Assembly: GCF_037042905.1 (NCBI RefSeq)
Contig: NC_087250.1
Coordinates: forward strand, 4,776,001 to 4,840,000
Length of the DNA stretch: 64,000 bases
Direction of reading: 5' to 3'
Origin: Lytechinus pictus
Lineage: Eukaryota
Shown here: positions 345-46,143 of the stretch, piece by piece
How positions within the stretch are numbered: position 1 is the first letter of the stretch
Layout: each line of letters starts with the position of its first letter
Notes under the pieces: generated by a model
What the model saw: only the letters and a program-made list of their open reading frames with translations
Databases searched by the model: none
Told to the model about the DNA's origin: nothing
Position numbers and translations under genes: made by a program

Positions 345-657
345 ATTTAAGCACTATCTAAAGCACTGTGTAGGGAAATTGTGAAGTGTATGTGGAGAAA
401 ACTTAATAAATGATGCAAGTGCGAAGCGCGAGCTGATATTATTATTATTATTTTGACCTAGGATCTGGACATTCTAGGCCTAAGGACATTTTGTCATCAT
501 ATGAAAATGATGACTCTGTTCCTATTCCTCTTCCTAGGCGCGAAATGAAACTTGTCGATATTCCTCTCTGAAAAAGGGACAATTTAGTTATTAGAAATTC
601 ATGAACATTTTATTAATATTTATTAATGTAATAAGCCTAATGAGTGGGTGAAATTTG
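345..657 (+). mobile_element. Left part of an interspersed GCGAGCGCGAAGCGCGAGC-motif repeat (host of the giant element)
   Basis: Aligns by eye to ~32950-33265 (e.g. AAGGACATTTTGTCATCA, TTCCTATTCCTCTTCCTA, CTGAAAAAGGGAC, TAATAAGCCTAATGAG). Confidence 0.85.
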
Positions 658-658
658 A

Positions 659-1207
659 GGGTAAGCCCGCCAGTCATAAGGACCATAAGTCATAATACTA
701 ACTGGTCATAAGGACCGTTAGTCATAACGTGTACAATCCTATACCCAAATGTTCGCTAGTCATAATAGGGACAAAGGGTCACTAGTCATAAGGTCATAAG
801 GACCATGAGTCATAAGGTCCGATTTTCATAATGCAAGGTAAGGGTCGCTATTCATAATGCACGATAAGGGTAAATGATCATAAGGAACGCTAGTCATAAT
901 CAACAATGAGGGTCGGTATTCATAATAATAGATGAGGGTCGCTAGTCATAAAAAGAAAGAGGCTACATTAATCATGAGGGTCGCCAGTCATAATAGGGGA
1001 AGAGGTTCACTAGTCATAATAGTAGATGAGGTTCGCCAGTCATAATAGTAGAAGAGGGTCGCTATTCATGACTGGCCAGTCATAATAGAATAAGGGGTTC
1101 GCCAGTCATAATAGTAGATGAGGGTCGCTAGTCATAATAGTAGAAAGCATTGGCGTACCTAGGATTTTTCACAGGGGGGGCAAAACCGTCCACCAAAAAA
1201 TTTGACA

Positions 1208-1250
<43 letters not shown>

Positions 1251-4200
1251 TCTTCAAGCTCGTCAGGGGGGCATTGAAGGTCTTCAAGCTCGTCAGGGGG
1301 GGCAAAAAAGGTTTTTCAAGCCCGTCAGGGGGGGGCAAAGATACGTTTTTGCATGGGTTGTGACTCGTCAGGGGGGGCAGAGTGCCCCCCCTGCCCCCCC
1401 GTAGGTACGCTAGTGGTAGAAAGGGTTCGCCAGTTATAATAGTAGATGAGGGTCGCTAGTCATAATAGTAGAAAGGGTTCGCCAGTCGTAATAGTAGAAG
1501 GGGTTCGCCAGTCATAATAGTAGAAGGGATTCGCCAGTCATAGTAGAAGGGGTTCGCCAGTCATAATGGTAGATGAGGGTCGCTAGTCATAATAGTAGAG
1601 GGGTTCACCAGTAATAATAGTTGATGAGGGTCGCCAGCCATAATAGTAGAAGGGGTTCGCCAGTTATGATAGTAGAAGGAGTTCGCCAGTCATAATGGTA
1701 GAAGGGGTTCGCTAGTCATAATGGTAGAATGGGTTCGCTATTCATAATAGTAGAAGGGGTTCGCCAGTCATAATAACATATGGGGCTCGCCAGTCATAAT
1801 AATACATGACGGTCGCCAGTCATAATAGAAGAAGGGGTTCGCCAGTCATAATAGTAGATGAGGGTCGCTAGTCATAATAGTAGAAAGGGTTCGCCAGTCA
1901 TAATAGTAGAGGGGGTTCGCCAGTCATAATAGTAGAAGGGGTTCGCCAGTCATAATAACAGATGTGGTTCGCCAGTCATAATAGAAGAAGGGGTTCGCCA
2001 GTCATAATAGTAGATGAGGGTCGCTAGTCATAATAGTAGAAAGGGTTCGCCAGTTATAATAGTAGATGAGGGTCGCTAGTCATAATAGTAGAAAGGGTTC
2101 GCCAGTCATAATAGTAAAAGGGGTTCGCCAGTCATAATAGTAGAAGGGATTCGCCAGTCATAGTAGAAGGGGTTCGCAAGTCATAATGGTAGATGAGGGT
2201 CGCTAGTCATAATAGTAGAGGGGTTCACCAGTAATAATAGTGGATGAGGGTCGCCAGTCATAATAGTAGAAGGGGTTCGCCAGTTATAATAGTAAAAGGA
2301 GTTTGCCAGTCATAATAATACATTTGGGTCGCCAGTCATAATAGTAGAAGGGGTTGGCCTGTCATAATAGAAGATGAGGGTCGCTAGTCATAATAGTAGA
2401 AGGGCTTCGCCAGTCATAATAGTAGGAGGGGTTCACCAGTAATAATAGTGGATGAGGGTCGCCAGTCATAATAGTAGAAGGGGTTCGCCAGTTATAATAG
2501 TAAAAGGAGTTTGCCAGTCATAATGGTAGAAGGGGTTCGTTAGTTATAATGGTAGAAGGGGTTCGCTAGTCATAATAGTAGAAGAGGTTCGCCAGTCATA
2601 ATAACAAATGGGGTTCGCCATTCATAATAATACATGACGGTCGCAAGTCATAATAGAAGAAGGGGTTCGCCAGTCATAATAGTAGATGAGGGTCGCTAGT
2701 CATAATAGTAGAAATAGTTCGCTAGTCATAATAGTAGATGAGGGTCGCTAGTCATAATCGTAGAAAGGGTTCGCCTGTCAAAATAGTAGAAGGGGTTCGC
2801 CAGTCATAATGGTAGAAGGGGTTCGCCAGTCATAATTACAGATTTGGTTCGCCAGTCATAATAGAAGAAGGGGTTCGCAAGTCATTATAGTAGATGAGGG
2901 TCGTTAGTCATAATAGTACAAAGGGTTCGCCAGTTATAATAGTAGATGAGGGTCGCTTGTCATAATAGTGGAAAGGATTCGCCAGTCATAATAGTAGAAG
3001 GGGTTCGCCAGTCAAAATAAAAGAAGGGGTTCGCAAGTTATAATAGTAGATGAGGGTCACTAGTCATAATAGTAGAAATGGTTCGCCAGTTATAATAGTG
3101 GATGAGGGTCGCCAGTCATAATAGTAGAAGGGGTTCGCAAGTCATAATGGTAAAAGGGGCTCGCCAGTCATAATAACAGATGGGGTTTGCCAGTCATAAT
3201 AATACATAACGGTCGCCAGTCATAATAGAAGAAGGGGTTCGCCAGTCATAATAGTAAAAGGGATTCGCCAGTCATAGTAGAAGGGGTTCGCCAGTCATAA
3301 TGGTAGATGAGGGTCGCTATTCATAATAGTAAAGGGGTTCACAAGTGATAATAGTGGATGAGGGTCGCCAGTTATAATAGTAGAAAGGGTTCGCCAGTTA
3401 TAGTAAAAGGAGTTCGCCAGTCATAATGGTAGAAGGGGTTCGTTAGTCATAATGGTAGAAGGGGTTCGCTAGTCATAATAGTAGAAGAGGTTCGCCAGTC
3501 ATAATAACAAATGGGGTTGGTCAGTCAAAATAATACATGAGGGTCGCCAGTCATAATAGTAGAAGGGGTTGGCCTGTCATAATAGAAGATGAGGGTCGCT
3601 AGTCATAATAGTAGAAAGGGTTCGCCAGTCATAATAGTAAAAGGGGTTCGCCAGTCATAATAGTAGAAGGGATTCGCCAGTCATAGTAGAAGGGGTTCGC
3701 AAGTCATAATGGTAGATGAGGGTCGCTAGTCATAATAGTAGAGGGGTTCACCAGTAATAATAGTGGATGAGGGTCGCCAGTCATAATAGTAGAAGGGGTT
3801 CGCCAGTTATAATAGTAAAAGGAGTTTGCCAGTCATAATGGTAGAAGGGGTTCGTTAGTTATAATGGTAGAAGGGGTTCGCTAGTCATAATAGTAGAAGA
3901 GGTTCGCCAGTCATAATAACAAATGGGGTTCGCCAGTCATAATAATACATTTGGGTCGCCAGTCATAATAGTAGAAGGGGTTGGCCTGTCATAATAGAAG
4001 ATGAGGGTCGCTAGTCATAATAGTAGAAGGGGTTCGCCAGTCATAATAGTAGGAGGGGTTCACCAGTAATAATAGTGGATGAGGGTCGCCAGTCATAATA
4101 GTAGAAGGGGTTCGCCAGTCATAATAGTAAAAGGAGTTTGCCAGTCATAATGGTAGAAGGGGTTCGTTAGTTATAATGGTAGAAGGGGTTCGCTAGTCAT

Positions 4201-7200
4201 AATAGTAGAAGAGGTTCGCCAGTCATAATAACAAATGGGGTTCGCCATTCATAATAATACATGACGGTCGCAAGTCATAATAGAAGAAGGGGTTCGCCAG
4301 TCATAATAGTAGATGAGGGTCGCTAGTCATAATAGTAGAAATAGTTCGCTAGTCATAATAGTAGATGAGGGTCGCTAGTCATAATCGTAGAAAGGGTTCG
4401 CCTGTCATAATAGTAGAAGGGGTTCGCCAGTCATAATGGTAGAAGGGGTTCGCCAGTCATAATTACAGATTTGGTTCGCCAGTCATAATAGAAGAAGGGG
4501 TTCGCAAGTCATTATAGTAGATGAGGGTCGTTAGTCATAATAGTAGAAAGGGTTCGCCAGTTATAATAGTAGATGAGGGTCGCTTGTCATAATAGTGGAA
4601 AGGATTCGCCAGTCATAATAGTAGAAGGGGTTCGCCATTCAAAATAAAAGAAGGGGTTCGCAAGTTATAATAGTAGATGAGGGTCACTAGTCATAATAGT
4701 AGAAATGGTTCGCCAGTTATAATAGTGGATGAGGGTCGCCAGTCATAATAGTAGAAGGGGTTCGCAAGTCATAATGGTAAAAGGGACTCGCCAGTCATAA
4801 TAACAGATGGGGTTTGCCAGTCATAATAATACATAACGGTCGCCAGTCATAATAGAAGAAGGGGTTCGCCAGTCATAATAGTAAAAGGGATTCGCCAGTC
4901 ATAGTAGAAGGGGTTCGCCAGTCATAATGGTAGATGAGGGTCGCTAGTCATAATAGTAAAGGGGTTCACAAGTGATAATAGTGGATGAGGGTCGCCAGTT
5001 ATAATAGTAGAAAGGGTTCGCCAGTTATAGTAAAAGGAGTTCGCCAGTCATAATGGTAGAAGGGGTTCGTTAGTCATAATGGTAGAAGGGGTTCGCTAGT
5101 CATAATAGTAGAAGAGGTTCGCCAGTCATAATAACAAATGGGGTTGGTCAGTCAAAATAATACATGAGGGTCGCCAGTCATAATAGTAGAAGGGGTTGGC
5201 CTGTCATAATAGAAGATGAGGGTCGCTAGTCATAATAGTAGAAAGGGTTCGCCAGTCATAATAGTAAAAGGGGTTCGCCAGTCATAATAGTAGAAGGGAT
5301 TCGCCAGTCATAGTAGAAGGGGTTCGCAAGTCATAATGGTAGATGAGGGTCGCTAGTCATAATAGTAGAGGGGTTCACCAGTAATAATAGTGGATGAGGG
5401 TCGCCAGTCATAATAGTAGAAGGGGTTCGCCAGTTATAATAGTAAAAGGAGTTTGCCAGTCATAATGGTAGAAGGGGTTCGTTAGTTATAATGGTAGAAG
5501 GGGTTCGCTAGTCATAATAGTAGAAGAGGTTCGCCAGTCATAATAACAAATGGGGTTCGCCAGTCATAATAATACATTTGGGTCGCCAGTCATAATAGTA
5601 GAAGGGGTTGGCCTGTCATAATAGAAGATGAGGGTCGCTAGTCATAATAGTAGAAGGGGTTCGCCAGTCATAATAGTAGGAGGGGTTCACCAGTAATAAT
5701 AGTGGATGAGGGTCGCCAGTCATAATAGTAGAAGGGGTTCGCCAGTCATAATAGTAAAAGGAGTTTGCCAGTCATAATGGTAGAAGGGGTTCGTTAGTTA
5801 TAATGGTAGAAGGGGTTCGCTAGTCATAATAGTAGAAGAGGTTCGCCAGTCATAATAACAAATGGGGTTCGCCATTCATAATAATACATGACGGTCGCAA
5901 GTCATAATAGAAGAAGGGGTTCGCCAGTCATAATAGTAGATGAGGGTCGCTAGTCATAATAGTAGAAATAGTTCGCTAGTCATAATAGTAGATGAGGGTC
6001 GCTAGTCATAATCGTAGAAAGGGTTCGCCTGTCATAATAGTAGAAGGGGTTCGCCAGTCATAATGGTAGAAGGGGTTCGCCAGTCATAATTACAGATTTG
6101 GTTCGCCAGTCATAATAGAAGAAGGGGTTCGCAAGTCATTATAGTAGATGAGGGTCGTTAGTCATAATAGTAGAAAGGGTTCGCCAGTTATAATAGTAGA
6201 TGAGGGTCGCTTGTCATAATAGTGGAAAGGATTCGCCAGTCATAATAGTAGAAGGGGTTCGCCATTCAAAATAAAAGAAGGGGTTCGCAAGTTATAATAG
6301 TAGATGAGGGTCACTAGTCATAATAGTAGAAATGGTTCGCCATTTATAATAGTGGATGAGGGTCGCCAGTCATAATAGTAGAAGTGGTTCGCAAGTCATA
6401 ATGGTAAAAGGGACTCGCCAGTCATAATAACAGATGGGGTTTGCCAGTCATAATAATACATAACGGTCGCCAGTCATAATAGAAGAAGGGGTTCGCCAGT
6501 CATAATAGTAAAAGGGATTCGCCAGTCATAGTAGAAGGGGTTCGCCAGTCATAATGGTAGATGAGGGTCGCTAGTCATAATAGTAAAGGGGTTCACAAGT
6601 GATAATAGTGGATGAGGGTCGCCAGTTATAATAGTAGAAAGGGTTCGCCAGTTATAGTAAAAGGAGTTCGCCAGTCATAATGGTAGAAGGGGTTCGTTAG
6701 TCATAATGGTAGAAGGGGTTCGCTAGTCATAATAGTAGAAGAGGTTCGCCAGTCATAATAACAAATGGGGTTGGTCAGTCAAAATAATACATGAGGGTCG
6801 CCAGTCATAATAGCAGAAGGGGTTGGCCTGTCATAATAGAAGATGAGGGTCGCTAGTCATAATAGTAGAAGGGGTTCGCCAGTCATAATAGTAGATGACG
6901 GTCGCTAGTCATAACAGTAGAAGGGATTCGCCAGTCATAATTGTAGAAGGGGGTTCGCCAGTCATAATAGTAGAAGGGGTTCGCCAGTCATAATAGCATA
7001 TGGGGTTCGCCATTCATAATAATACATGACGGTCGCCAATCATAATAGAAGAAGGGGTTCGCCAGTCATAATAGTAGATGAGGGTCGCTAGTCATAATAG
7101 TAGAAAGAGTTCGCCAGTCATTATAGTAGATGAGGGTCGCTAGTCATAATAGTAAAAAGGGTTCGCCAGTCATAATAGTAGAAGGGGTTTGCCAGTCATA

Positions 7201-10200
7201 ATGGTAGAAGGGGTTCGCCAGTCATAATAACAGATGTGGTTCTCCAGTCATAATAGAAGAAGGGGTTCCCCAGTCATTATAGTAGATGAGGGTCGTTAGT
7301 CATAATAGTAGAAAGGGTTCGCCAGTTATAATAGTAGATGAGGGTCGCTTTTCATAATAGTAGAAAGGATTCACCAGTCATAATAGTAGAAGGGGTTCGC
7401 CAGTCAAAATAGAAGAAGGGGTTCGCAAGTTATAATAGTAGATGAGGGTCGCTATTCATAATAGTATAAATGGTTCGCCAGTTATAATAGTGGATGAGGG
7501 TCGCCAGTCATAATAGTAGAAGGGATTCGCAAGTCATAATGGTAAAAGGGGCTCGCCAGTCATAATAACAAATGGGGTTTGCCAGTCATAATAATACATA
7601 ACGGTCGCCAGTCAGAATAGAAGAAGGGGTTCGCCAGTCATAATAGTAGATGAGGGTCGCTAGTCATAATAGTAGAAAGGGTTCGCGAGTCATAATAACA
7701 AATGGGGATCGCCAGTCATAATAATACATGAGGGTCGCCAGTCATAATAGTAGCAGGGGTTCGCCTGTCATAATAGAAGATGAGGGTCGCTAGTCATAAT
7801 AGTAGAAGGGGTTCGCCAGTCATAATAGTAGATGACGGTCGCTAGTCATAACAGTAGAAGGGGGTCGCCAGTCATAATAGAAGAAGGGGTTCGCCAGTCA
7901 TAATAGTAGATGAGGGTGGCTAGTCATAATAGTAGAAAGAGTTCGCCAGTCATAATAGTAGATGAGGGTCGCTAGTCATAATAGTAGAAATTGTTCGCCA
8001 GTCATAATAGTAGAAGGGGTTCGCCAGTCATAATGGTGAAAGGGGTTCGTCAGTCATAATAACATATGTGGTTCGCCAGTCATAATAGAAGAAGGGGTTC
8101 GCCAGTTATAATAGTAGATGAGGGTCGCTAGTCATAAGAGTAGATGAGGGTCGCTAGTCATAATAGTTGATGAGGGTCGCCAGCCATAATAGTAGAAGGG
8201 GTTCGCCAGTTATGATAGTAGAAGGAGTTCGCCAGTCATAATGGTAGAAGTTGTTCGCTAGTCATAATGGTAGAAGGGGTTCGCTATTCATAATAGTAGA
8301 AGGGGTTCGCCAGTCATAATAACATATGGGGCTCGCCAGTCATAATAATACATGACGGTCGCCAGTCATAATAGAAGAAGGGGTTCGCCAGTCATGATAG
8401 TAGATAAGGGTCGCTAGTCATAATAGTAGAAAGGGCTCGCCAGTCATAATAGTAGAGGGGGTTCGCCAGTCATAATGGTAGAAGGGGTTCGCCAGTCATA
8501 ATAACAGATGTGGTTCGCCAGTCATAATAGAAGAAGGGGTTCGCCAGTCATAATAGTAGATGAGGGTCGCTAGTCATAATAGTAGAAAGGGTTCGCCAGT
8601 TATAATAGTAGATGAGGGTCGCTAGTCATAATAGTAGAAAGGGTTCGCCAGTCATAATAGTAAAAGGGGTTCGCCAGTCATAATAGTAGAAGGGATTCGC
8701 CAGTCATAGTAGAAGGGGTTCGCAAGTCATAATGGTAGATGAGGGTCTCTAGTCATAATAGTAGAGGGGTTCAACAGTAATAATAGTGGATGAGGGTCGC
8801 CAGTCATAATAGTAGAAGGGGTTCGCCAGTTATAATAGTAAAAGGAGTTTGCCAGTCATAATGGTAGAAGGGGTTCGTTAGTTATAATGGTAGAAGGGGT
8901 TCGCTAGTCATAATAGTAGAAGAGGTTCGCCAGTCATAATAACAAATGGGGTTCGCCAGTCATAATAATACATTTGGGTCGCCAGTCATAATAGTAGAAG
9001 GGGTTGGCCTGTCATAATAGAAGATGAGGGTCGCTAGTCATAATAGTAGAAGGGGTTCGCCAGTCATAATAGTAGAAGGGGTTCGCCAGTCATAATAACA
9101 TATGGGGTTCGCCATTCATAATAATACATGACGGTCGCAAGTCATAATAGAAGAAGGGGTTCGCCAGTCATAATAGTAGATGAGGGTCGCTAGTCATAAT
9201 AGTAGAAAGAGTTCGCTAGTCATAATAGTAGATGAGGGTCGCTAGTCATAATAGTAGAAAGGGTTCGCCTGTCATAATAGTAGAAGGGGTTCGCCAGTCA
9301 TAATAGTAAAAGGAGTTTGCCAGTCATAATGGTAGAAGGGGTTCGTTAGTTATAATGGTAGAAGGGGTTCGCTAGTCATAATAGTAGAAGAGGTTCGCCA
9401 GTCATAATAACAAATGGGGTTCGCCATTCATAATAATACATGACGGTCGCAAGTCATAATAGAAGAAGGGGTTCGCCAGTCATAATAGTAGATGAGGGTC
9501 GCTAGTCATAATAGTAGAAATAGTTCGCTAGTCATAATAGTAGATGAGGGTCGCTAGTCATAATCGTAGAAAGGGTTCGCCTGTCATAATAGTAGAAGGG
9601 GTTCGCCAGTCATAATGGTAGAAGGGGTTCGCCAGTCATAATTACAGATTTGGTTCGCCAGTCATAATAGAAGAAGGGGTTCGCAAGTCATTATAGTAGA
9701 TGAGGGTCGTTAGTCATAATAGTAGAAAGGGTTCGCCAGTTATAATAGTAGATGAGGGTCGCTTGTCATAATAGTGGAAAGGATTCGCCAGTCATAATAG
9801 TAGAAGGGGTTCGCCATTCAAAATAAAAGAAGGGGTTCGCAAGTTATAATAGTAGATGAGGGTCACTAGTCATAATAGTAGAAATGGTTCGCCAGTTATA
9901 ATAGTGGATGAGGGTCGCCAGTCATAATAGTAGAAGGGGTTCGCAAGTCATAATGGTAAAAGGGACTCGCCAGTCATAATAACAGATGGGGTTTGCCAGT
10001 CATAATAATACATAACGGTCGCCAGTCATAATAGAAGAAGGGGTTCGCCAGTCATAATAGTAAAAGGGATTCGCCAGTCATAGTAGAAGGGGTTCGCCAG
10101 TCATAATGGTAGATGAGGGTCGCTAGTCATAATAGTAAAGGGGTTCACAAGTGATAATAGTGGATGAGGGTCGCCAGTTATAATAGTAGAAAGGGTTCGC

Positions 10201-13200
10201 CAGTTATATTAAAAGGAGTTCGCCAGTCATAATGGTAGAAGGGGTTCGTTAGTCATAATGGTAGAAGGGGTTCGCTAGTCATAATAGTAGAAGAGGTTCG
10301 CCAGTCATAATAACAAATGGGGTTGGTCAGTCAAAATAATACATGAGGGTCGCCAGTCATAATAGTAGAAGGGGTTGGCCTGTCATAATAGAAGATGAGG
10401 GTCGCTAGTCATAATAGTAGAAGGGGTTCGCCAGTCATAATAGTAGATGACGGTCGCTAGTCATAACAGTAGAAGGGATTCGCCAGTCATAATTGTAGAA
10501 GGGGGTTCGCCAGTCATAATAGTAGAAGGGGTTCGCCAGTCATAATAGCATATGGGGTTCGCCATTCATAATAATACATGACGGTCGCCAATCATAATAG
10601 AAGAAGGGGTTCGCCAGTCATAATAGTAGATGAGGGTCGCTAGTCATAATAGTAGAAAGAGTTCGCCAGTCATTATAGTAGATGAGGGTCGCTAGTCATA
10701 ATAGTAAAAAGGGTTCGCCAGTCATAATAGTAGAAGGGGTTTGCCAGTCATAATGGTAGAAGGGGTTCGCCAGTCATAATAACAGATGTGGTTCTCCAGT
10801 CATAATAGAAGAAGGGGTTCCCCAGTCATTATAGTAGATGAGGGTCGTTAGTCATAATAGTAGAAAGGGTTCGCCAGTTATAATAGTAGATGAGGGTCGC
10901 TTTCCATAATAGTAGAAAGGATTCACCAGTCATAATAGTAGAAGGGGTTCGCCAGTCAAAATAGAAGAAGGGGTTCGCAAGTTATAATAGTAGATGAGGG
11001 TCGCTATTCATAATAGTATAAATGGTTCGCCAGTTATAATAGTGGATGAGGGTCGCCAGTCATAATAGTAGAAGGGATTCGCAAGTCATAATGGTAAAAG
11101 GGGCTCGCCAGTCATAATAACAAATGGGGTTTGCCAGTCATAATAATACATAACGGTCGCCAGTCAGAATAGAAGAAGGGGTTCGCCAGTCATAATAGTA
11201 GATGAGGGTCGCTAGTCATAATAGTAGAAAGGGTTCGCCAGTCATAATAACAAATGGGGATCGCCAGTCATAATAATACATGAGGGTCGCCAGTCATAAT
11301 AGTAGCAGGGGTTCGCCTGTCATAATAGAAGATGAGGGTCGCTAGTCATAATAGTAGAAGGGGTTCGCCAGTCATAATAGTAGATGACGGTCGCTAGTCA
11401 TAACAGTAGAAGGGGGTCGCCAGTCATAATAGAAGAAGGGGTTCGCCAGTCATAATAGTAGATGAGGGTGGCTAGTCATAATAGTAGAAAGAGTTCGCCA
11501 GTCATAATAGTAGATGAGGGTCGCTAGTCATAATAGTAGAAATTGTTCGCCAGTCATAATAGTAGAAGGGGTTCGCCAGTCATAATGGTGAAAGGGGTTC
11601 GTCAGTCATAATAACATATGTGGTTCGCCAGTCATAATAGAAGAAGGGGTTCGCCAGTTATAATAGTAGATGAGGGTCGCTAGTCATAAGAGTAGATGAG
11701 GGTCGCTAGTCATAATAGTTTATGAGGGTCGCCAGCCATAATAGTAGAAGGGGTTCGCCAGTTATGATAGTAGAAGGAGTTCGCCAGTCATAATGGTAGA
11801 AGTTGTTCGCTAGTCATAATGGTAGAAGGGGTTCGCTATTCATAATAGTAGAAGGGGTTCGCCAGTCATAATAACATATGGGGCTCGCCAGTCATAATAA
11901 TACATGACGGTCGCCAGTCATAATAGAAGAAGGGGTTCGCCAGTCATGATAGTAGATAAGGGTCGCTAGTCATAATAGTAGAAAGGGCTCGCCAGTCATA
12001 ATAGTAGAGGGGGTTCGCCAGTCATAATGGTAGAAGGGGTTCGCCAGTCATAATAACAGATGTGGTTCGCCAGTCATAATAGAAGAAGGGGTTCGCCAGT
12101 CATAATAGTAGATGAGGGTCGCTAGTCATAATAGTAGAAAGGGTTCGCCAGTTATAATAGTAGATGAGGGTCGCTAGTCATAATAGTAGAAAGGGTTCGC
12201 CAGTCATAATAGTAAAAGGGGTTCGCCAGTCATAATAGTAGAAGGGATTCGCCAGTCATAGTAGAAGGGGTTCGCAAGTCATAATGGTAGATGAGGGTCT
12301 CTAGTCATAATAGTAGAGGGGTTCAACAGTAATAATAGTGGATGAGGGTCGCCAGTCATAATAGTAGAAGGGGTTCGCCAGTTATAATAGTAAAAGGAGT
12401 TTGCCAGTCATAATGGTAGAAGGGGTTCGTTAGTTATAATGGTAGAAGGGGTTCGCTAGTCATAATAGTAGAAGAGGTTCGCCAGTCATAATAACAAATG
12501 GGGTTCGCCAGTCATAATAATACATTTGGGTCGCCAGTCATAATAGTAGAAGGGGTTGGCCTGTCATAATAGAAGATGAGGGTCGCTAGTCATAATAGTA
12601 GAAGGGGTTCGCCAGTCATAATAGTAGAAGGGGTTCGCCAGTCATAATAACATATGGGGTTCGCCATTCATAATAATACATGACGGTCGCAAGTCATAAT
12701 AGAAGAAGGGGTTCGCCAGTCATAATAGTAGATGAGGGTCGCTAGTCATAATAGTAGAAAGAGTTCGCTAGTCATAATAGTAGATGAGGGTCGCTAGTCA
12801 TAATAGTAGAAAGGGTTCGCCTGTCATAATAGTAGAAGGGGTTCGCCAGTCATAATAGTAAAAGGAGTTTGCCAGTCATAATGGTAGAAGGGGTTCGTTA
12901 GTTATAATGGTAGAAGGGGTTCGCTAGTCATAATAGTAGAAGAGGTTCGCCAGTCATAATAACAAATGGGGTTCGCCATTCATAATAATACATGACGGTC
13001 GCAAGTCATAATAGAAGAAGGGGTTCGCCAGTCATAATAGTAGATGAGGGTCGCTAGTCATAATAGTAGAAATAGTTCGCTAGTCATAATAGTAGATGAG
13101 GGTCGCTAGTCATAATCGTAGAAAGGGTTCGCCTGTCATAATAGTAGAAGGGGTTCGCCAGTCATAATGGTAGAAGGGGTTCGCCAGTCATAATTACAGA

Positions 13201-24165: not shown

Positions 24166-24460
24166 AGGGAACTTTGCTACATAATAACTGAGGTGGATGC
24201 AAAGTGCGAGCACAAAAAAGTGATTTTCAAACGTAATATGTATTATGTTGTAGTTCAAAAAGGGTATTCAATTTCGAAAAAGAGCACATTCTATTTTGAA
24301 AAATTGGTTTGTTTTTTTAAATGATAACCAGCAGGAGCTGTTAATAATGACACCCTCTCCCCTTAAAAAAGAAAATTACCTTGACGTTATTCACATAACT
24401 TTTGTGACCATCCTGAAAATGTTGGTCAATATACTTTGAATTATGCACAATCGGCTCGGT
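24161..24460 (+). repeat. Unique segment, copy 1 of an internal duplication
   Basis: 24161-24424 is nearly identical to 28181-28444 (offset 4020). Copy 1 lacks ~210 bp that is present in copy 2. Confidence 0.92.
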
Positions 24461-24815
24461 GTAAAAATGGCAGAGGTAAAAATGGCAGAGGTAAAATTGG
24501 CAGAGGTAATAATGGCAGAGGTAAAAATGGCAGAGGTAATAATGGCAGAGGTAAAAATGGCAGAGGTAAAAATGGCAGATGTTAAAAGGGCAGAGGTAAT
24601 AATGGCAGGGGTAAAATGGCAGGGGTAATAATGGCAGAGGTAAAATGACAGAGGTAAATATGGCAGAGGTAAAAATGGCAGAGGTAAAAATGGCAGAGGT
24701 AAAAATGGCAGAGGTAAAAATGGCAGAGGTAATAATGGCAGAGGTAATATTGGCGGAGGTAAAATGGCAGGGGTTATAATGGGAGAGGTAAAAATGACAG
24801 CTCTAGGTAAAATAT
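24461..24815 (+). repeat. 15-bp tandem array AAAATGGCAGAGGTA
   Basis: About 23 copies following CGGCTCGGTGT. A shorter copy lies at 28688-28793. Confidence 0.95.
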
Positions 24816-25886
24816 GGCCAGTCTTAAACCCCCATGCAATGAATTGTCAAAAAGCCCCCCCATGTACATACATTAAATAAGAAGTGCATGTCACGGTTAG
24901 GCATTTCATCATCATTATGTCTTCATCGGCCTAAACAATGCTATTTACGAATTCGTTGGAGGTGTACCGTGAACACTTTTTAAAAAGAAATCAGACAACA
25001 TATATTTTTTCATTCAATTTATCAGGAGCAAAATGAAACTGCACTATTCTCATTCATCATTTTATAACATTCCTTTTTTTCTGGCTGGATTTTTTATATC
25101 TAAAGTTTTGCCAGGTTTACCGATGCTAAAATGAGGAAGGGTAGACATAAGAGAGGTGGAGAGACAGAGAGGGTTAGGGGCGGGGAAAACATAGAGAACA
25201 TAGCGGGGAAAGATTAGATGTTGAAATTATCATGAATGATTGTGGTTAAATATTATTTCCTTATTTGTAATGTCGTCTGTACTATTCTTTTTGAATAATT
25301 GAATTACAATAAACATGCGTTCCCAGGCTTGGCACTGAATATGTAACTGATTATGAAAATCAATAATAATCTTGTTTTGACTGGTAAACCAATTTGGGGT
25401 CGATCGAGGGAGACCGTCTGGTTCAGATTCTTTGCATAAAAGAAGACCCTGAAACTTTACCACTGCATCCAATATGATATAAACGCCTTGATGGTCATAA
25501 CCCTTGGAAGCGGAAGTACTGTTGGGTATTTTGTACACCATAAGCAGCATCCTCTTGGCAATTAGCTTGGTATGCTAAAATGAAAAAACATTGTTTATTA
25601 TCTAATTGTTATTATTTTGTTGTAATTCTTTTTCTGACCTAAAAGAACTTGATTTAGTTGAAATAATTTGTTGTGTCATTTTCCCCCTTAACCAAATCCC
25701 CTTTCATTTTGGAGTAAAAACTTTTTTTCTTGGCTTTTTAACAAACCAGCACCCCATTTTTCACTAACTTTTCAAAAGTAAGTGGTGCTCACTCAAGCGG
25801 AAATATTTTTTCGACAGTTATATCGTAATTTGCTTAAATGGATCTGTACCAATGTTAAAATGTGGAAAAATATTCAGGATTTTACA

Positions 25887-28180
25887 AGTGGTTCGCAAGT
25901 CATAATGGTAAAAGGGGCTCGCCAGTCATAATAACAGATGGGGTTTGCCAGTCATGATAACACATAACGGTCGCCAGTCATAATAAAAGAAGGGGTTCGC
26001 CAGTCATAATAGTAGAAGGGATTCGCCAGTCATAGTAGAAGGGATTCGCCAGTCATAATGGTAGATGAGGGTCGCTAGTCATAATAGTAGAGGGGTTTAC
26101 CAGTAATAATAGTGGATGAGGGTCGCCAGTCATAATAGTAGAAGGGGTTCGCCAGTTATAGTAAAAGGAGTTCGCCAGTCATAATGGTAGACGGGGATCG
26201 TTAGTCATAATGGTAGAAGGGGTTCGCTAGTCATAATAGTAGAAGAGGTTCGCCAGTCATAATAACAAATGGGGTTCGTCAGTCATAATACAGTAATACA
26301 TGAGGGTCGCCAGTCATAATAGTAGAAGGGGTTGGCCTGACATAATAGAAGATGAGGGTCGCTAGTCATAATAGTAGAAGGGGTTCGCCAGTCATAATAG
26401 TAGATGACGGTCGCTAGTCATAACAGTAGAAGGGGTTCGCCAGTCATAATTGTAAAAGGGGGTTCGCCAGTCATAATAGTAGAAGGGGTTCGCCAGTCAT
26501 AATAGCATATGGGATTCGCCATTCATAATAATACATGACGGTCGCCAGTCATAATAGAAGAAGGGGTTCGCCAGTCATAATAGTAGATGAGGGGCGCTAG
26601 TCATAATAGTAGAAAGAGTTCGCCAGTAATAATAGTAGATGAGGGTCGCTAGTCATAATAGTAAAAAGGGTTCGCCAGTCATAATAGTAGAAGGGGTTCG
26701 CCAGTCATAATGGTAGAAGGGGTTCGCCAGTTATAATAACAGATGTGGTTCGCCAGTCATTATAGTAGATGAGGGTCGTTAGTCATAATAGTAGAAAGGG
26801 TTCGCCAGTTATAATATTAGATGAGGGTCGCTTGTCATAATAGTAGAAAGGATTCGCCAGTCATAATAGTAGAAGGGGTTCGCGAGTCAAAATAGAAGAA
26901 GGGGTTTGCAAGTCAAAATAGAAGAAGGGGTTTGCAAGTTATAATAGTAGATGAGGGTCGCTAGTCATAATAGTAAAAAGGGTTCGCCAGTTATAATAGT
27001 GGATGAGGGTCGCCAGTCATAATAGTAGAAGGGGTTCGCAAGTCATAATGGTAAAAGGGGCTCGCCAGTCATAATAACAGATGGGGTTTGCCAGTCATAA
27101 TAATACATAACGGTCGCCAGTCATAATAGAAGAAGGGGTTCGCCAGTCATAATAGTAGATGAGGGTTGCTAGTCATAATAGTAGAGGGGTTCGCCAGTAA
27201 TAATAGTGGATGAGGGTCGCCAGTCACAATAGTAGAAGGGGTTCGCCAGTCATAATGGTAAAAGGGGTTCGCCAGTCATAATAACAAACGGGATTCGCCA
27301 GTCATAATAATACATGAGGGTCGCCAGTCATAATAGTAGAAGGGGTTCGCCAGTCATAATGGTAAAAGGGGTTCGCCAGTCATAATAACAAACGGGATTC
27401 GCCAGTCATAATAATACATGAGGGTCGCCAGACATAATATTAGAAGCGGTTGGCCTGTCAAAAACGAAGATGAGGGTCGCTAGTCATAATAGTAGAAGGG
27501 GTTCGCCAGTCATAATAGTAGATGACGGTCGCTAGTCATAACAGTAGAAGGGGTACGCCAGTCATAATGGTTAAGGGGTTCGCCAGTCATAATAACAGAT
27601 GTGGTTCGCCAGTCATAATAAAAGAAGGGGTTCGCCAGTTATAATAGAAGATGAGGGTCGCTAGTAATAATAGTAGAAAGGGTTCACCAGTTATAATAGT
27701 ACATGAGGGTCGCTTGTCATAATAGTATAAGGGGTTCGCCAGTCATAACAGTAGAAGGGTTTCGCCAGTCATAGTAGAAGGGGTTCGCCAGTCATGGTAG
27801 ATGAGGGTCGCTTGTCATAATAGTAGAGGGGTTCGCCAGTAATAATAGTGGATGAGGGTCGCCAGTCATAATAGTAGAAGGGGTTCGCCAGTCATAATGG
27901 TAAAAGGGGTTCGCCAGTCATAATAACAAACGGGATTCGCCAGTCATAATAATACATTAGGGTCGCCAGACATAATAGTAGAAGCGGTTGGCCTGTCAAA
28001 AACGAAGATGAGGGTCGCTAGTCATAATAGTAGAAGGGGTTCGCCAGTCATAATAGTAGATGACGGTCGTTAGTCATAACAGTAGAAGGGGTTCGCCAGT
28101 CATAGTAGTAGAAGGGGTTCGCCAGTCATAATAGTAGAAGAAGGTCGCTAGCCATAATAGTGGAAGGGGTTCGCCAGTCA
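25887..28180 (+). repeat. Second block of the 26-bp satellite
   Basis: Same unit and orientation as the main array. It ends with the same terminal monomers (GAAGCGGTTGG, GAAGAAGGTCGCTAGCC). Confidence 0.97.
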
Positions 28181-28793
28181 GAAGAAGGGAACTTTGCTAC
28201 ATAATAACTGAGGTGGATGCAAAGTGCGAGCACAAAAAAGTGATTTTCAAACGTAATATGTATTATGTTGAAGTTCAAAAAGGGTATTCAATTTCGAAAA
28301 AGAGCACATTCTATTTTGAAAAATTGGTTTGTTTTTTTAAATCATAACCAGCAGGAGCTGTTAATAATGACACCCTCTCCCCTTAAAAAGAAAATTACCT
28401 TGAGGTTATTCACATAACTTTTGTGACCATCCTGAAAATGTTGGACTTCAAAAAGAGTATTTAATTTTGAAAAAGGGCACATTCCATTTTGTAAAAGGCA
28501 TTTCCCTTTTGAAAAAAGGGCATTTTTTTACCTACGGGGATTTTTTTTAACATTACCAGCAGAAGCTGTTATAAATGACAACCTCCCCTAAAAAAAAATC
28601 ACCTTATCTTTAGGTGAAAAGGTGTAGATTGTGCATAATTCCAATATCAAAGAAATCTACTTTGAATTATGCACAATCGGCTCGGTGTAAAAATGGCAGA
28701 GGTAATAATGGCAGAGGTAAAAATGGCAGAGGTAATAATGGCAGGGGTAAAATGGCAGGGGTAATAATGGCAGAGGTAAAATGACAGAGGTAA
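28181..28793 (+). repeat. Unique segment copy 2 plus a short AAAATGGCAGAGGTA array
   Basis: Duplicate of 24161-24460, followed by ~7 copies of the 15-mer. Confidence 0.9.
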
Positions 28794-28859
28794 GATTTTT
28801 TTTTAAGTATTCTTTCAGGACTTACGTATATATTTGGTACGAAGTATGAATTTTGCTTA

Positions 28860-31070
28860 CATTTCTGGAAAATTATCCATCTCACAAAATAATGGCTTGA
28901 TAACATTAATTCATAAAGGTGACAAAGTAAGACATTTCATTAAAAATTGGAGACCAATTTCATTGTTGAATGTTGTCAAGTTGTATTGCTAACAGACTTT
29001 AAAAAAGTATTACCATATGTTATTCATGTTAATCAGGATTCTTGTCTCGACGAATTATTGGTGAAAATTAAATTTGGCAATTCTTTCATGAAATGGATAA
29101 AAATACTACATCAGAATGCATTTTCTAGTGCTATAGTCAATGGGCAAATGAAACTAAGATTTCGTATTGAAAGAGGGTATATAGGCAAGGTGGTCCCCTA
29201 TCGGCATTATCTGTTTTTGTTACGCGCTGAAATTCTTTGGTTGTTAATTCGAAATTCACACTCTGTCCAGGGAAGTGTTTAACACTTCCCTGCTCTGTCA
29301 AAGGAATTTATGTTGGCTTAAAAGAATACAAAATTCTTCAGTATGCGGATGGCACGGTTTTTTTTTCTGGATGGTACAGCTGCCAGTTTATGTAATGTAC
29401 TAAATATTTTGGATTCATTTGCTGAATGTAGTGGGTTGAAGGTCAATATGCAAAAAAAAATAATGCAATTTGGATAGGTGCTTCACAAAGTGAAAAAGAT
29501 ATACAACTAGATGGAAAACAAGTTGATTTTGTGCATAATGGTTTTTCTTTTCGGTACCTTGGTACAGACTTTCATGTTGTTACTGATAAAATACCCGATT
29601 ATAATAACGATAGAGTTTTCGACAAAATAAAACATCAAATGATTTCATGGATTAAACGAAATATCACTGGTAGAATTGCAGTTGTGAAATCATTATTACT
29701 GCCACAATTTAATCATTTGTTTATGTCAATTCTATCTCCTTCTGCTAAGTTAATGAAAGTTATAAAAAGTAAAGTTCTTTAATTTCATATTGAAGAACAG
29801 GCCAAACAAGAATAGTAGAAAACAGGTTGTTGGTGCTTATGAAGAAGGAGGTCTTAAGATGCCAGACATTGATTTTCTTTAATATGTCATTAAAGCTTAC
29901 ATGGATTCGGAGAATGATTTTAGGAAAATGTGATGACGTCTTTCATCTGATGAAATCATTTTTAACTAAGCCATTTGTATTACAATTTGTGGATGAATAT
30001 TTTCTGTCATTATCTCATGAAGTTGGTAATGCATTTTGGAAAAACGTATTTCATGCTATGTTTTTTTGTTAATTCAAGCGGGGAAAAATAATTGGCTTAC
30101 CAATCCTTTGTGGAGAAATAATGCTATTCAAATAGGGGATAAGTCTGTATTCTTCAAATGTGGTATGAAAAGGGATTAGATTTATTAATGACCTGATTGA
30201 TGATAACGGAAATTTACTTACTCATGATGAATGTGAACAAAATTTTGCTTTAAAGTAAATTATTTGTCCTATTTTTCTATAAGACAAACTATAAAGTGTC
30301 GATATCGAGTAAATGTCGAAACTTGTGAAAAAAATATAGAAAATCCTTTGATACCTTCACATGTTAAAATATTAGTACATGACCGAAAAGGATGTCAATA
30401 TGTCTATAAAACTTTGCCTGGAAAAACAAAATGTGTTCCTATAATATGTTCAAAATGGGATCGATATTTAGATGACCCTCTTGATAATATAACAATTGAA
30501 AGAAACCATATTATGATATTTCGTTTTACTTCAGATATTGGTTTAAGATATTTTCAGTATAAGACATTAAATAGAATATTATTTCTGAACAAACAATTAC
30601 ATAAGATAAAGATTTTTTAAAATGAAAAATTTTCATTTTGTAATAGGGAGTTGGAAGATATTCTACACTTTTTTATAAATGTAAATTTAGTAAAGAAATT
30701 AGGAAGAAAACTGAAAATTGGATTCATGAATGTTTTCAGGCACACATTAAGTTTAGTTAGAAAAATGTAATCTTTGGTTTTGATGAGAAAAGAAATGATG
30801 CATTGAATTGTTTGGTATGTATAATAAAAAAACATTTATTTTTTCAAAAGTTAAATAGTAAAAAACCAGTGTTTACATATGCAAAGAAAAAAATGATTCA
30901 ATATTATGCAGATGAGAGATATATTAGTTCTATATCGGGTTTGTTTAACAAATTTAATACTAAATGGATGTCACTTCATTTTTTATTTATTTGAGAGAAA
31001 TGTTTAAGTATTATTATTGTAATAATGTTTGCTCTTGTATATTTTGATATTATGTGAATCAATAAAAGGC
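28860..31070 (+). pseudogene. Decayed, 5'-truncated non-LTR retrotransposon ORF2 (L1/Tx1 clade reverse transcriptase)
   Basis: Motifs in order across frameshifts: KNWRPISLLNV, FMKWIKIL..NGQ, RQGGPLS, QYADGT (from YADD), SGLKVN, FRYLG, GRIAVVKSLLLPQFNHL, EGGLKMPD, FQYKTLNRIL, and a degenerate C-terminal zinc knuckle (FCNRELEDILHFF). AATAAA at 31061. Confidence 0.9.
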
Positions 31071-31199
31071 CTTTGGAGGGCTAAAAAATGGGGAAAATTA
31101 TACCTTCATGGTATCAGCATGAGAGAGTGGACGTGATTGCGGGTGTGGGTGTGTGTGAGGGAGAGAGAAAGAGGTAGGGCCTTATGCGGTGGGTGTGTT

Positions 31200-31887
31200 C
31201 AGGGGTAGATCCAGGGGGCCCAGGAGTCCTTGCCCATTCCTCGATTACAGGAAACTGAAGAAAATCATAAAAAGAACACAAAAAAGGCTAGTGTCGGAAA
31301 AGATAGCAGAAGGTCTCATTTATATGTCTGGTATGAATCGATCGAGCCACTTGGCCAACAATTAAAGGGGATTAGAGAGAGAACATAAAGTATTAAGAAA
31401 AAATTGCTAACAAAACGTGTTTTATGTCGAATATAATTTATCTTAGATATCGGAATCAAATAACACTGTGAAGGTTGGGAAAAATAATGATTACAAATTT
31501 TGGTTTCATTCAAAAAACATGCTAAAAAAAATCAGGCCCTTTCAAAGGCAACTAATTCACTAAAGTAATTAATTTATATAACCCCATTGATATTTTGATA
31601 ACATAAAAGTTAATTTCTTTCTCTTATCCCTTTCCCTTGTTTTCAATCTTCCTCTCATTGCTAATCTACAGGGAGTGCGATCGAGTCAGCAGCGTCGGGA
31701 TAAGGCCGTTGCATGGTTGTTATACATCTTGCCCCAAATTCTTATTTTTCATACTTTTTTGTTTGTTTTTGGTACAAGGGGATAGGCCTATATGCAAGGG
31801 TGTTTCGGCAATGCATTTTTAGCCTTTCATAATTTCAGTTTTCTGCCCCCCCCCCCCCTTCAAAGGACAAACACGGATCTGCACCTT
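31200..31887. mobile_element. Old hAT-like MITE
   Basis: Starts CAGGGGTAGATCCAGGGGG and ends with poly-C...CGGATCTGCACCT (degenerate inverted termini). No TSD recognised. Confidence 0.5.
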
Positions 31888-32078
31888 ATATGGAACCTCA
31901 ACCAATTTAGCATCCTATCAGAGGGACGGGTTGTGACTGCGAACCAGTAAACCTGCACCATAATGAAAACGCCGAAACGGCCAAGGAAAATGCCAACCAA
32001 AGTCATGCCCGGAATAACAACGAGCCTCGGCAGGCGACCCTCCGCCTTCTCTTGTTAGGACTGGTAACCCTGATGTGG

Positions 32079-34183
32079 CAGGGGCGGATCCAGCTTTCGC
32101 CAATAGGGGGGGGGGGGCGGAAAAATTTTGCACCCATGTTTTCTCCGATCGGCCCCTCAAAGTTGATGTTTATTTGAAGGGTTAGTCCTAACAGTCACTT
32201 CTTATAGCTTTATTTTTATGAATTATGAAAATCTCATAAGCCCTATCTAACTTATTTAATAGTGCGAGCGCGAAGCGCAAGCTCAATTTTGTGGAAAATT
32301 TTATGTATTTTGCCTTGAAAAATTCAGTATTCTGGGCCAAGTTTGTGATCATAAAAAAGATGCGTATGTAAATGAATAATCACTGCAAGCGCGCAGCGCG
32401 AGCAAAATTTTCCAATCTACATTCTGGCCTAATCGAAAAGGATCCTGCTAAGCTAGGACTGTATGCAGTAAGCCATGAAGACGATAAACATTTTTAATAA
32501 TGCGACCGTCAATCGCGAGCTGATTGTATTTTTTTCAATCACGACCTAAAAAAATTACATTTGAGTACTTTTTTAAATCATGAACAGGATAGATAGTATA
32601 AAAAAAATGTGAGTGCGATGCGCGAGTGTAAAAAATGAGATTTATAAACTAAGAAAGGGATACTCTATTCATGTTTTGTAAATCATGAAAATGATGGATA
32701 TAATTGGTTATCGTTTTACAACAGTAATGCAGGAGTGAAGCGCGAGCAGAAATTTTTTTATATTCTGATCTGAAATTCGATAATTTACGCACGTTTTGAA
32801 TAAAGAACCAGCTGCATGCGTATCTAAAAAAACATATGCGTGTTCTATATTTAGACCTAGAATATAGGCTTTCTTAAATTCATTCTTTCATCATGAAAAA
32901 CAATAATGCGAGCGCGGGATGAAAATATTTGACATTCCTAACTGAAAAAGGGGCAATTTTGGCACTCCTTCAAGCACCGCGTAGGAAAAGTAATTGTGAA
33001 GTTAATATGGATCGCAGCTAATAAATGAGGCGAGCGCGAAGCACGAGCTGATATAATTTTTTTTTCATCATTTTGACCAAGGACCGGAACAATCTAAGGA
33101 CATTTTGTCATCAAGACTGTCTTCCTATTCCTCTTCCTAAGCGTGATATGAAACTTGTCCATATTCCATTCTGAAAAAGGGACGATTTAATTAGACGGAA
33201 TTCATGAAAAATTCATCTTATCTATTATTCTAATAAGCCTAATGAGATCGAGCGCCAAATTTGTTGATATTGAGGTCAAAAAAATGGAAATTCTAAGAAA
33301 TTTGTAATCGTGAATAGGATGCTTGGGTTCAGTGGTGGCTCAGTGGTAGAGCGTCCGCCTCATGAACGGGAGGTCGTGGGTTCGATCCCCGGCCGAGTCA
33401 TACCAAAGACTTATAAAAATGGGACCTTCTGCCTTCTTGCTTGGCGCTCAGCATTTAGACTGGAGAGGGGTAATGATAACATATTATGTTATGCAGGGCC
33501 CGCTGGAAGAGCAGTTGAAGTGGCTACCCTGGGTAAATAAAACGTTATCATTATTATTATTATATTTCTAATAATGCGAGCGCAAATCGCGAGCAGAATG
33601 TCATGAAAAGGAGATTTTTAGTATAAATCATATAATTAATACAGAGGTATACATATCTCACGAATTGAAACGCGAGCGCGCAGCGCTATAGCTGATATGT
33701 TTTGACAATCAGACCTGAAAATGGAAACGAATTTTGAGAACTTTATGAAATATAGCTACTTTAACCAAATAATACGAGCGCCCAGCGCGAGCTGAAAATG
33801 TTGACACTCAGACTATAACGGGCATTTTACAAAGTAATTTTTAAAATAAATTAATAAATCAAACAAAAAAATGAAATCTCGATATCCGAGCTGAAATATG
33901 TTTTGTACATTCACTGCAAGAAGTAATGAGCTCCATATCAGCCTATTGAGCAACATATGTATCCTCATCACATGCAATGTGAACGCTAAACCGTGCGAGG
34001 AATAATTGTACATATTTTAAAATATTTAATTAATTTTCCAAGGCTTCCCCTTACCTTATTTTATTTACTCGTTTTTCCTCCTCTTTTTCCCCTCTTCCTT
34101 TCTTTCTTCTCTCTTTTCCCTTCTGTTTTTCGTTCTTTTCCCACAATTTTTGTTGCTCCGCGACACCTTGATATCCGCCTATA
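32079..34183 (+). mobile_element. ~2.1 kb non-autonomous hAT-like element with recurrent GCGAGCGCGAAGCGCGAGC motifs
   Basis: Starts CAGGGGCGGATCCAG plus poly-G and ends GATATCCGCCTAT. About a dozen spaced motif copies. Homologous to 345-657 plus 35450-35850. TSD not visible. Confidence 0.7.
33325..33563 (+). mobile_element. tRNA-derived SINE
   Basis: Pol III A box TGGCTCAGTGG, B box GGTTCGATCC, a body and a (TTA)n tail. Absent from the homologous repeat copy near 35500. Confidence 0.88.
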
Positions 34184-34185
34184 AA

Positions 34186-35440
34186 TGGCGACCCTCATCT
34201 ACTATTATAACTAGCGAACCCCTTCTTCTATTATGACTATATAGCAACCCTCATCTACTATAATGACCGGCGAACCCTTTCTACTATTATGATTGGCGAA
34301 CCCCATACTATTATGACTAGCGACGCTCATCAATTATTATGACTGGCGAACCCGATCTGTTATTATGACTGGCGACCCTCATCCACTATCATGACTGGCG
34401 AACCCTTTCTACTATTTGGACCGGCGAACCCCTTCTACTATAATGACTAGCGACACTCATCCACTATTATGTCTGGCGAACCCTTTCTACTATTATGACT
34501 GGTGAACCCCATCTACTACTATGACTAGCGACCCACATCTATTATTATGACTGGCGAACCCCATCTGCTATTATGACTGGCGACCCTCATCCACTATTAT
34601 GACTGGCGAACCCCTTCTACTATTATGACTTGCGACCCTCATCCAATATTATGACTGGCGAACCCTTTCTACTATTATGACTGGCGAACCCTATCTGTTA
34701 TTATGACTAGCGACCCTCATCCACTATTATGACTGGCGAACCCTTTCTACTATTATGACTGGCGAGCCCTATCTACTATTATGACAAGCGACCCTAACTT
34801 ACTATTATGACTGGCGAACCCTTTCTTCTATTATGACTGGCAACCCACATCTACTATTATGACTGGCGAACCCCATATGTTATTATGACTAGCGACCCTT
34901 ATCCACTACTATGACTTGCGAACCCTTTGTACTATTATGACTGGCGGCCAAATCTACTATTATGACAAGCGACCCCCTCTACTATTGTGACTGGCGAACC
35001 CTCATCTACTATTATGACTGGCGAACCTCTGCTACTATTAATACTTGCGACCCTCATCTACTATTATGACTGGCGAACCCCTTCTACTATTAATACTGGC
35101 GACCCTCATCCACTATTATGACTGGCGACCCTCATCTACCATTAAGACTGGCGAACCCCTTCTACTATTATGACTGGCGACCCTCATCCACTATTATGAC
35201 TGGCGACCCTTATGATTAACGAACCCTTTTCCTCCTTATGACTGGCGACCCTCTTCCTTGATTATGACTAGCGACCCTCTTGTTTCATTATGAATGGCGA
35301 CCCCCATCGTTGATTATGACTAGCGACCTCTATGAACAACGCCCCTTATGAATAGCGACCCTTATGACTATTATGACTAGCGGTCCTTATAACTAGCGGG
35401 TATTATGACTTATGGTCCTTCTGACTGGCGGATGGACCCC
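34186..35440 (-). repeat. Inverted copy of the 26-bp satellite (right arm)
   Basis: GGCGAACCCCTTCTACTATTATGACT units, about 48 copies, degenerating toward the terminus as a mirror image of the left arm. Confidence 0.97.
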
Positions 35441-35449
35441 GAAATTTGA

Positions 35450-46108: not shown

Positions 46109-46120
46109 ATCCAGGACAAT

Positions 46121-46143
46121 CTGGGGACAGAAAGGAAATAAGA
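46121..46143 (-). promoter_or_regulatory. Putative splice acceptor 12 nt upstream of the GPCR ATG
   Basis: The minus strand reads TCTTATTTCCTTTCTGTCCCCAG|ATTGTCCTGGATATG. Confidence 0.65.

Follow-up and report, generated by a model that had tools for sequence, protein, structure and literature searches.

A stretch of 64,000 nucleotides on contig NC_087250.1 of Lytechinus pictus (NCBI RefSeq assembly GCF_037042905.1, positions 4,776,001 to 4,840,000 of the forward strand; hereafter the window) carries a long 26-bp satellite, and the locus raises the question of whether this satellite is the arm of a single mobile element. A first-pass annotation had proposed exactly that, reading the region as one non-autonomous foldback-type transposon of ~34.8 kb with a true target-site duplication (TSD). 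Our analysis agrees as to the kind of element. We consider it likely that a multi-copy family of non-autonomous, foldback-type class II (cut-and-paste) elements has one of its copies at 659-35440, inserted in a copy of a dispersed repeat, which we call U. Sequence comparisons back its status as one insertion through a paralogous empty site and through other genomic copies with the same terminus at 659, and they support the satellite as the arm of a bounded foldback-type element. The element is 34,782 bp long, and repeat-built arm sequence accounts for 26,782 bp of this total.

The inverted termini proposed at 659 and 35440 are present. The left end reads GGGTAAGCCCGCCAGTCATAAGGACC... on the plus strand from 659 (longer reading, GGGTAAGCCCGCCAGTCATAAGGACCATAAGTCATAATAC), and the reverse complement of the right end reads GGGGTCCATCCGCCAGTCAGAAGGACC... 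from 35440 (longer reading, GGGGTCCATCCGCCAGTCAGAAGGACCATAAGTCATAATAC). An alignment of the two ends that allows a 1-nt gap has 39 matches in its first 50 columns; the ends are collinear for ~490 bp at ~70% identity, and their outermost 9-10 nt differ. A 32-mer at 667-698 (+) recurs with one difference at 35400-35431 (-) and at no other site in the 64 kb, and none of 100 shuffles produced a match. A terminal domain of ~230 bp is found solely at the two ends, in inverted orientation. Successive TCATAA cores are spaced 16, 16, 16 and then mostly 26 bp apart at the left tip, and 32, 9, 16, 32 and then 26 bp apart at the right tip; at each end, therefore, the terminal domain has a period of 16 bp and gives way inward to the 26-bp repeat. 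Conservation within the unit is highest at the core TCATAAT and in the CGCCAG part.

Inside the ends, Tandem Repeats Finder (TRF) located the opposed 26-bp arrays described in the first-pass annotation, two on the plus strand and one on the minus strand. Together with the collinear terminal domains, these arrays make up the long terminal inverted arms of tandem repeats by which foldback elements are recognized. The claim of inverted arms thus stands, with the correction that the arms are very unequal (~27.5 kb on the left, including the second array, versus ~1.25 kb on the right) and unlike in their outermost nucleotides.

Directly outside both ends lies the proposed duplication, GAAATTTGA. 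Apart from these two plus-strand sites, 650 and 35441, the 9-mer is absent from both strands of the window, and a match of 9/9 at any one position would arise by chance with a probability of ~5.8e-6. Its length is read as 9 bp; should A658 be part of the element, this would shrink to 8 bp, a choice that the paralog described next (CAAATTTGT) cannot decide. The flanks outside the element consist of repeat U, whose units of ~120 bp are arranged around a GCGAGCGCGAAGCGCGAGC-like palindromic core. Repeat U is present at 337-658, 35441-35888 and 32200-33970 and is both the insertion target and part of the middle segment of the element. A diverged U copy in that middle segment aligns at 32950-33263 with the left flank at 337-657 (74%, BLAST E = 3.5e-53) and, unbroken, at 33257-33329 with the right flank at 35442-35515 (BLAST E = 4.9e-8). 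Collinearity goes on beyond this point, with 33551-33598 corresponding to 35507-35559 and 33747-33970 to 35648-35888 (E = 5.9e-27). At the place of the window's GAAATTTGA, 34.8 kb of element and second GAAATTTGA, the paralog shows just one AAATTTG. As judged from these alignments, it would represent the empty target, supplied by a paralog and neither an allele nor an ortholog, so that a duplicated target at the boundaries is matched by an uninterrupted target elsewhere.

Contigs of four public sequencing runs from three studies were aligned to positions 339-1150 at 80% likeness, and 32 of ~73,000 placed pieces were listed (12 element-side and 20 flank-side). The runs consist of short contigs with at most 0.11 of the sampled words. 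Four of the 12 listed element-side pieces, from two studies, begin at 659/660; another seven start deeper in the element. Two of the four are on the plus strand, and in these 39 and 894 letters of non-fitting sequence stand before the terminus. All four depart from the window copy, with 13-25 changed letters and 8-15 gaps over 170-234 bp, and are therefore other members of the family. Because the likeness of these copies starts at 659/660 and not at 650, GAAATTTGA lies outside the terminal consensus; a place within the consensus would have spoken against the first-pass proposal. Of the 20 listed flank-side pieces, three stop at 657 and 17 short of it. The summed word depth of the contigs was ~1e5 at 395-450 versus 5e3-8e3 beside the junction, and the high abundance of repeat U explains the U copy inside the element.

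Several observations weigh against this reading of the locus. One listed element-side piece begins at 678 and not at 659. None of the 32 listed pieces crosses 658/659, an absence that proves nothing, and without a bridging contig among them the junction itself lacks independent confirmation; nor is there, among these 32 of ~73,000 pieces, another full copy in which both ends and a separate duplication can be seen. An inverted copy of the inner junction J of the left arm is absent from the right arm, and the multi-kb perfect repeats within the satellite could also be produced by assemblers. We infer both the superfamily and the mobilization in trans, the 56 internal ORFs having yielded no transposase. 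Finally, the arms are only ~70% identical over 490 bp and their outer 9-10 nt are unlike, yet the 9-bp duplication is perfect. Arms this dissimilar beside a perfect duplication suggest that the two ends of the family may be inherently different, comparable to the A1/A2 motifs of the nematode element Tm1, and not the product of simple decay after insertion. At the left end, the other genomic copies are ~83-87% like the left end of the window copy, which is nearer than the right end is; this similarity agrees with inherently different ends and is no proof of them.

The features of the element and its target are listed in Table 1.

Table 1. Coordinates of the element, its internal features and its target in the window.
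Feature	Position	Strand	Basis or remark
Left copy of target-site duplication GAAATTTGA	650..658	+	
Left terminal domain, AGTCATAA-containing repeats 16 bp apart, changing to 26 bp inward	659..888	+	
Left subterminal degenerate 26-bp repeats	889..1147	+	
Nested 268-bp insert in left arm, like a miniature inverted-repeat transposable element (MITE)	1148..1415	.	Ends CATTGGCGTACCTAGG and reverse complement CACTAGCGTACCTACG match 13/16
Left-arm satellite, 26-bp unit GTAGAAGGGGTTCGCCAGTCATAATA, ~879 copies	1416..24160	+	TRF
Inner junction J, then 15-bp repeat (GTAAAAATGGCAGAG)n	24161..24820	+	
Non-coding unique spacer between same-orientation arrays	24821..25885	.	No Pfam family
Second 26-bp array, ~89 copies, orientation as first	25886..28180	+	TRF; ~86% like end of first array
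Second J copy and 15-bp repeat	28181..28795	+	
Middle segment without transposase: reverse-transcriptase retroelement remnants, U cluster, short interspersed nuclear element (SINE)	28796..34185	.	
Paralogous empty site, diverged U copy in middle segment	32950..33329	+	Unbroken across left (337-657) and right (35442-35515) flanks
Right-arm 26-bp array, ~39 copies, inverted	34186..35210	-	TRF
Right terminal domain, collinear with 659-888	35211..35440	-	
Right copy of target-site duplication GAAATTTGA	35441..35449	+	

The left arm contains two signs of rearrangement. The first is a block structure within the satellite: a 3552-bp block is present three times (~5579-16500) and a 1627-bp block ~3 times (~2217-6960), each 100% identical between copies, in an array whose neighboring 26-bp units are only ~76% alike. 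The second is a duplication of the junction between array and J, with 24080-24425 matching 28100-28444 at 98.8%; each copy continues into (GTAAWAATGGCAGAG)n, and the second J copy has an extra segment of ~105 bp. The internal 15-bp repeat (GTAAAAATGGCAGAG)n occupies 24461-24800 and 28687-28793. Given the identical blocks, the duplicated array/J junction and the nested inserts (a MITE-like element, a reverse-transcriptase fragment and a SINE), 34.8 kb is probably a secondary size, reached by growth in place or in part through assembly artefact, and not the size that transposed. The first-pass annotation, which had taken the full 34.8 kb as the mobile unit, is not supported on this point. One arm probably grew and rearranged in place via unequal exchange or segmental duplication, and part of its present form is perhaps an artefact of assembly.

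Both termini and the perfect duplication have been kept. The locus could on this basis be a satellite birth caught in the act, with ~970 units and 25 kb arising from a single foldback arm that retains both termini and a perfect duplication, a reading that strikes us as plausible though somewhat short of probable. If it is true, the start point of the array, its orientation and its state before insertion would all be known, and the identical 3.5-kb and 1.6-kb blocks would be the most recent steps of amplification. The literature searched yielded no printed copy of the 26-bp unit.

The same blocks can be read in other ways. The element could be real while the length and order of its left arm (an over-expanded or mis-joined satellite, and the succession array, J, spacer, array, J) are artefacts of assembly. 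This deserves serious weight, although we find it unlikely on balance. Triplicate blocks without a single difference in a satellite of 76% identity form a pattern that assemblers can create, and no listed piece of the short public contigs spans the aligned 812-bp stretch. The two J copies differ, however, both in sequence and by the extra segment in the second, and the likeness between the second array and the end of the first reaches only ~86%, so that neither part is simply one assembly path used twice. Moreover, the sequence is not identical where the termini, the duplication and the right arm lie.

It is distinctly improbable that the unit moved largely as it now stands, as a large composite foldback element with a long left arm, a duplicated junction and ~5 kb of passenger DNA. 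Large composite elements bounded by FB, with host DNA between the FB ends, have been described in Drosophila. The insertion need not be old, given its perfect duplication, and the U copies of the middle segment, abundant elsewhere, must on this account have travelled with the element. The perfectly identical blocks point instead to very recent local amplification, and nothing shows arms of this size in other copies. The 20-fold asymmetry of the arms is also more simply explained by local array dynamics, for which the terminal inverted repeats (TIRs) of Galileo offer a small-scale precedent: the repeat number differs between the two TIRs of single Galileo copies (PMC3573991).

That no transposon is involved, and that a satellite with a locally inverted or duplicated segment happens to be flanked by a coincidental 9-bp direct repeat, is strongly disfavored and extremely improbable: the arms are indeed very unequal and ~70% alike, and none of the 56 open reading frames (ORFs) analyzed encodes a transposase, but the ~230-bp terminal domain is restricted to the two ends in inverted orientation, a 9/9 match has the low chance given above, the paralog bridges both flanks exactly at the insertion point, and the boundary at 659 is common to other genomic copies.

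Two further explanations were rejected. The flanks do not belong to the interior of an earlier, larger family member into which the element inserted, as 35450-64000 contains no 26-bp array and the flank repeat is very abundant. A foldback artefact of long-read sequencing would not account for arms that are ~70% alike and not identical, nor for a duplication at their bounds.

Returning to the element as an inserted foldback copy, we analyzed its coding content. None of the 56 internal stop-to-stop ORFs of at least 45 aa in the non-array parts reached the Pfam cut-off, and no transposase was found among them; the larger ORFs of the element had no Pfam match either. The element is non-autonomous, and its middle is a patchwork of repeats that are present elsewhere. 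Coding sequence survives only as the remains of a decayed retroelement bearing reverse transcriptase, a series of plus-strand ORFs at 28944-30620. Within it, the ORF at 29432-29782 has three relatives (E = 7e-44 to 3e-29), two of which carry PF00078 (RVT_1). An identity of the internal ORFs as a long interspersed nuclear element (LINE) has no Pfam match behind it and is backed only indirectly, by these two RVT_1-bearing relatives. The middle segment also contains the U cluster (~32200-33970) and a tRNA-derived SINE at ~33310-33540, in which an Rfam tRNA match covers 33334-33394 (32.8 bits); ARAGORN found no tRNA. Partial copies related to the SINE are located at 47588-47660 (-) and 63617-63695 (-).

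The MITE-like insert at 1148-1415 in the left arm is flanked by an 8-bp duplication of its own, GTAGAAAG, at 1140-1147 and 1416-1423. Among the listed contigs, those with a loose end behind 1144-1147 run on into GGTTCGCCAGTCATAATA, the uninterrupted array free of the insert. An A38 run and G-rich repeats of 30 bp lie within the insert, whose layout is hAT-like.

These features can be arranged into a possible history. A transposase supplied in trans would drive cut-and-paste movement by binding the termini and the reiterated AGTCATAA-containing subterminal repeats, with a Mutator/Phantom-type enzyme as the most likely, unproven candidate. It would make a 9-bp staggered cut in a copy of the abundant ~120-bp-unit repeat U, and 9 bp (possibly 8) of this target would be duplicated. 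After insertion, the left arm may have expanded at its present site into a satellite of ~970 units, through unequal exchange, slippage or segmental duplication, while the right arm would have remained at ~1.25 kb. The element would also have acquired the MITE, the retroelement fragment and the SINE, leaving a middle of passenger repetitive DNA.

Beyond the element, the window contains an intronless rhodopsin-type G protein-coupled receptor (GPCR) ORF, a retroviral-type integrase, many simple repeats and tRNA-derived SINE sequence. The receptor ORF is an uninterrupted frame of 459 aa at 44798-46177 (-) that matches the rhodopsin family (PF00001, E = 4e-40) and appears to be an intronless gene. 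The 472-aa ORF at 50647-52065 (-) has a retroviral-type integrase core (rve, rve_3, Integrase_H2C2) and is probably part of a long terminal repeat (LTR) retrotransposon. Two other tandem arrays lie close to the element. To its right, at a distance of 400 bp, a 9-bp satellite (ATCATCACC)n of ~249 copies spans 35852-38083, and its GC skew is extreme at -0.95. On the left, next to the target repeat, a 15-bp array (CGGAGCAATTGTCGG) of 21 copies occupies 15-338; its sequence is unrelated to the internal (GTAAAAATGGCAGAG)n.

Scans of metagenomes with the terminal 20-mer and with a satellite 21-mer gave no match in either case, and a scan of viral contigs likewise gave none. A scan of genome contigs did place the terminal 20-mer in two contigs of Hyphomicrobiales metagenome-assembled genomes (L001 and L002, positions 3001-3020 in each). 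We rejected both occurrences as chance, because a collection as large as this should contain about one such match at random; they fall in the same conserved bacterial coding region, and the likeness stops at the 20-mer.

A standard repeat annotation would divide this locus into a satellite, unrelated repeats and a small inverted array, and would miss one bounded mobile element. Recognition of the element explains the origin of a very abundant 26-bp satellite and provides a clear example outside Drosophila of foldback arms becoming satellite DNA. A 35-kb inverted-repeat structure is also a likely hotspot for ectopic recombination, inversions and assembly errors. If the satellite did arise here and the arm length proves polymorphic between individuals, the rate and mechanism of conversion from transposon to satellite could be measured directly at a single dated locus. 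The principle that foldback TIR repeats give rise to satellite DNA has already been published; an origin of satellites from transposon repeats is established, and reviews name Tetris as the foldback example.

The anatomy described here matches that of the foldback class, as represented by FB, TU, Tetris and Tm1. Mutator/Phantom is a possible superfamily for the element, proposed tentatively, and the link is a guess from the 8-9-bp duplication and the G-rich end. Duplications of 8-9 bp are also generated by hAT, P, Merlin and some other elements. The TSD of ~9 bp (8-10 bp) typical of Mutator has its counterpart in the 9 bp as read, or 8 bp with A658 in the element; none of the 56 ORFs encodes a transposase of Mutator or Mutator-like elements (MULEs), with or without FLYWCH, at the Pfam cut-off. 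The pair that marks Galileo and the P superfamily, a 7-bp duplication and a THAP/P transposase, was not found, the duplication here being 8-9 bp and the 56 ORFs being free of transposase.

In Drosophila FB, a member of the Mutator superfamily, the arms are built of tandem repeats whose period lengthens inward, and the TSD is 9 bp. The present element shares this lengthening of the repeats and, as read, the 9-bp duplication, a likeness of structure, and differs from FB in that no MULE or FLYWCH coding sequence was found in its 56 ORFs. The TU elements of Strongylocentrotus purpuratus, said to go back to descriptions by Liebermann et al. in 1983 and Hoffman-Liebermann et al. in 1985, reportedly carry long inverted repeats whose outer domain is made of short tandem repeats, with an inner domain as well in some members. 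Their modular middles are said to consist of sequences dispersed elsewhere in the genome, and a short target duplication is said to flank them. Reported values are 8 bp for the duplication, ~15 bp for the outer repeats and <1 kb for the inverted repeats. The comparison between TU and the present element is one of anatomy.

Most foldback elements are assigned to Mutator (PMC4079207), and duplications of 8-10 bp are described as consistent with that superfamily (PMC3169594, PMC4079207). Tetris of Drosophila virilis is a non-autonomous foldback element with tandem-repeat TIRs, TSDs of 8-10 bp and no ORF, whose TIR repeats can seed satellite arrays of kb size (Dias et al. 2014, PMC4079207). It resembles the present element in its long TIRs, where an outer flanking domain gives way to tandem repeats, in its variable non-coding middle, in being non-autonomous, in its TSD of 8-10 bp and in the presence of TIR repeats in satellite-like arrays of kb size. 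It differs in scale, with repeats of ~220 bp and TIRs of up to 1.7 kb, compared with 26 bp (16 bp at the tip) and an arm of ~27 kb here. The hosts also differ, and the array in L. pictus is still inside an element with both ends and a duplication; the two are likened by description.

Tm1 of root-knot nematodes has TSDs of 9 bp (8-10 bp), asymmetric outer 7-bp motifs and repeats of 13-15 bp (Gross and Williamson 2011, PMC3169594). The elements measure 1-2.6 kb, one subgroup encodes a Phantom/MULE transposase and most copies are non-coding (PMC3169594). Tm1 and the present element share asymmetric outermost motifs, short tandem repeats of variable number, non-identical TIRs and a mostly non-coding content, whereas the small size of Tm1 and the transposase of its one subgroup contrast with an element that has no transposase in 56 ORFs. 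Tm1 motif A2 reads GGGTAGG when reverse-complemented, and 6 of its 7 letters agree with the left end GGGTAAG (659-665), a similarity too short to count as evidence. Galileo, a foldback-like member of the P superfamily, is similar in its long, internally repetitive TIRs, the two of which change in repeat number independently, and differs in its 7-bp target sequences and P/THAP transposase from an element with an 8-9-bp duplication (PMC3573991). Set beside these systems, the element of L. pictus is distinguished by its short unit, which changes from 16 to 26 bp, by an arm of ~27 kb inside an element that retains both ends and a perfect duplication, and by a ~20-fold asymmetry of its arms.

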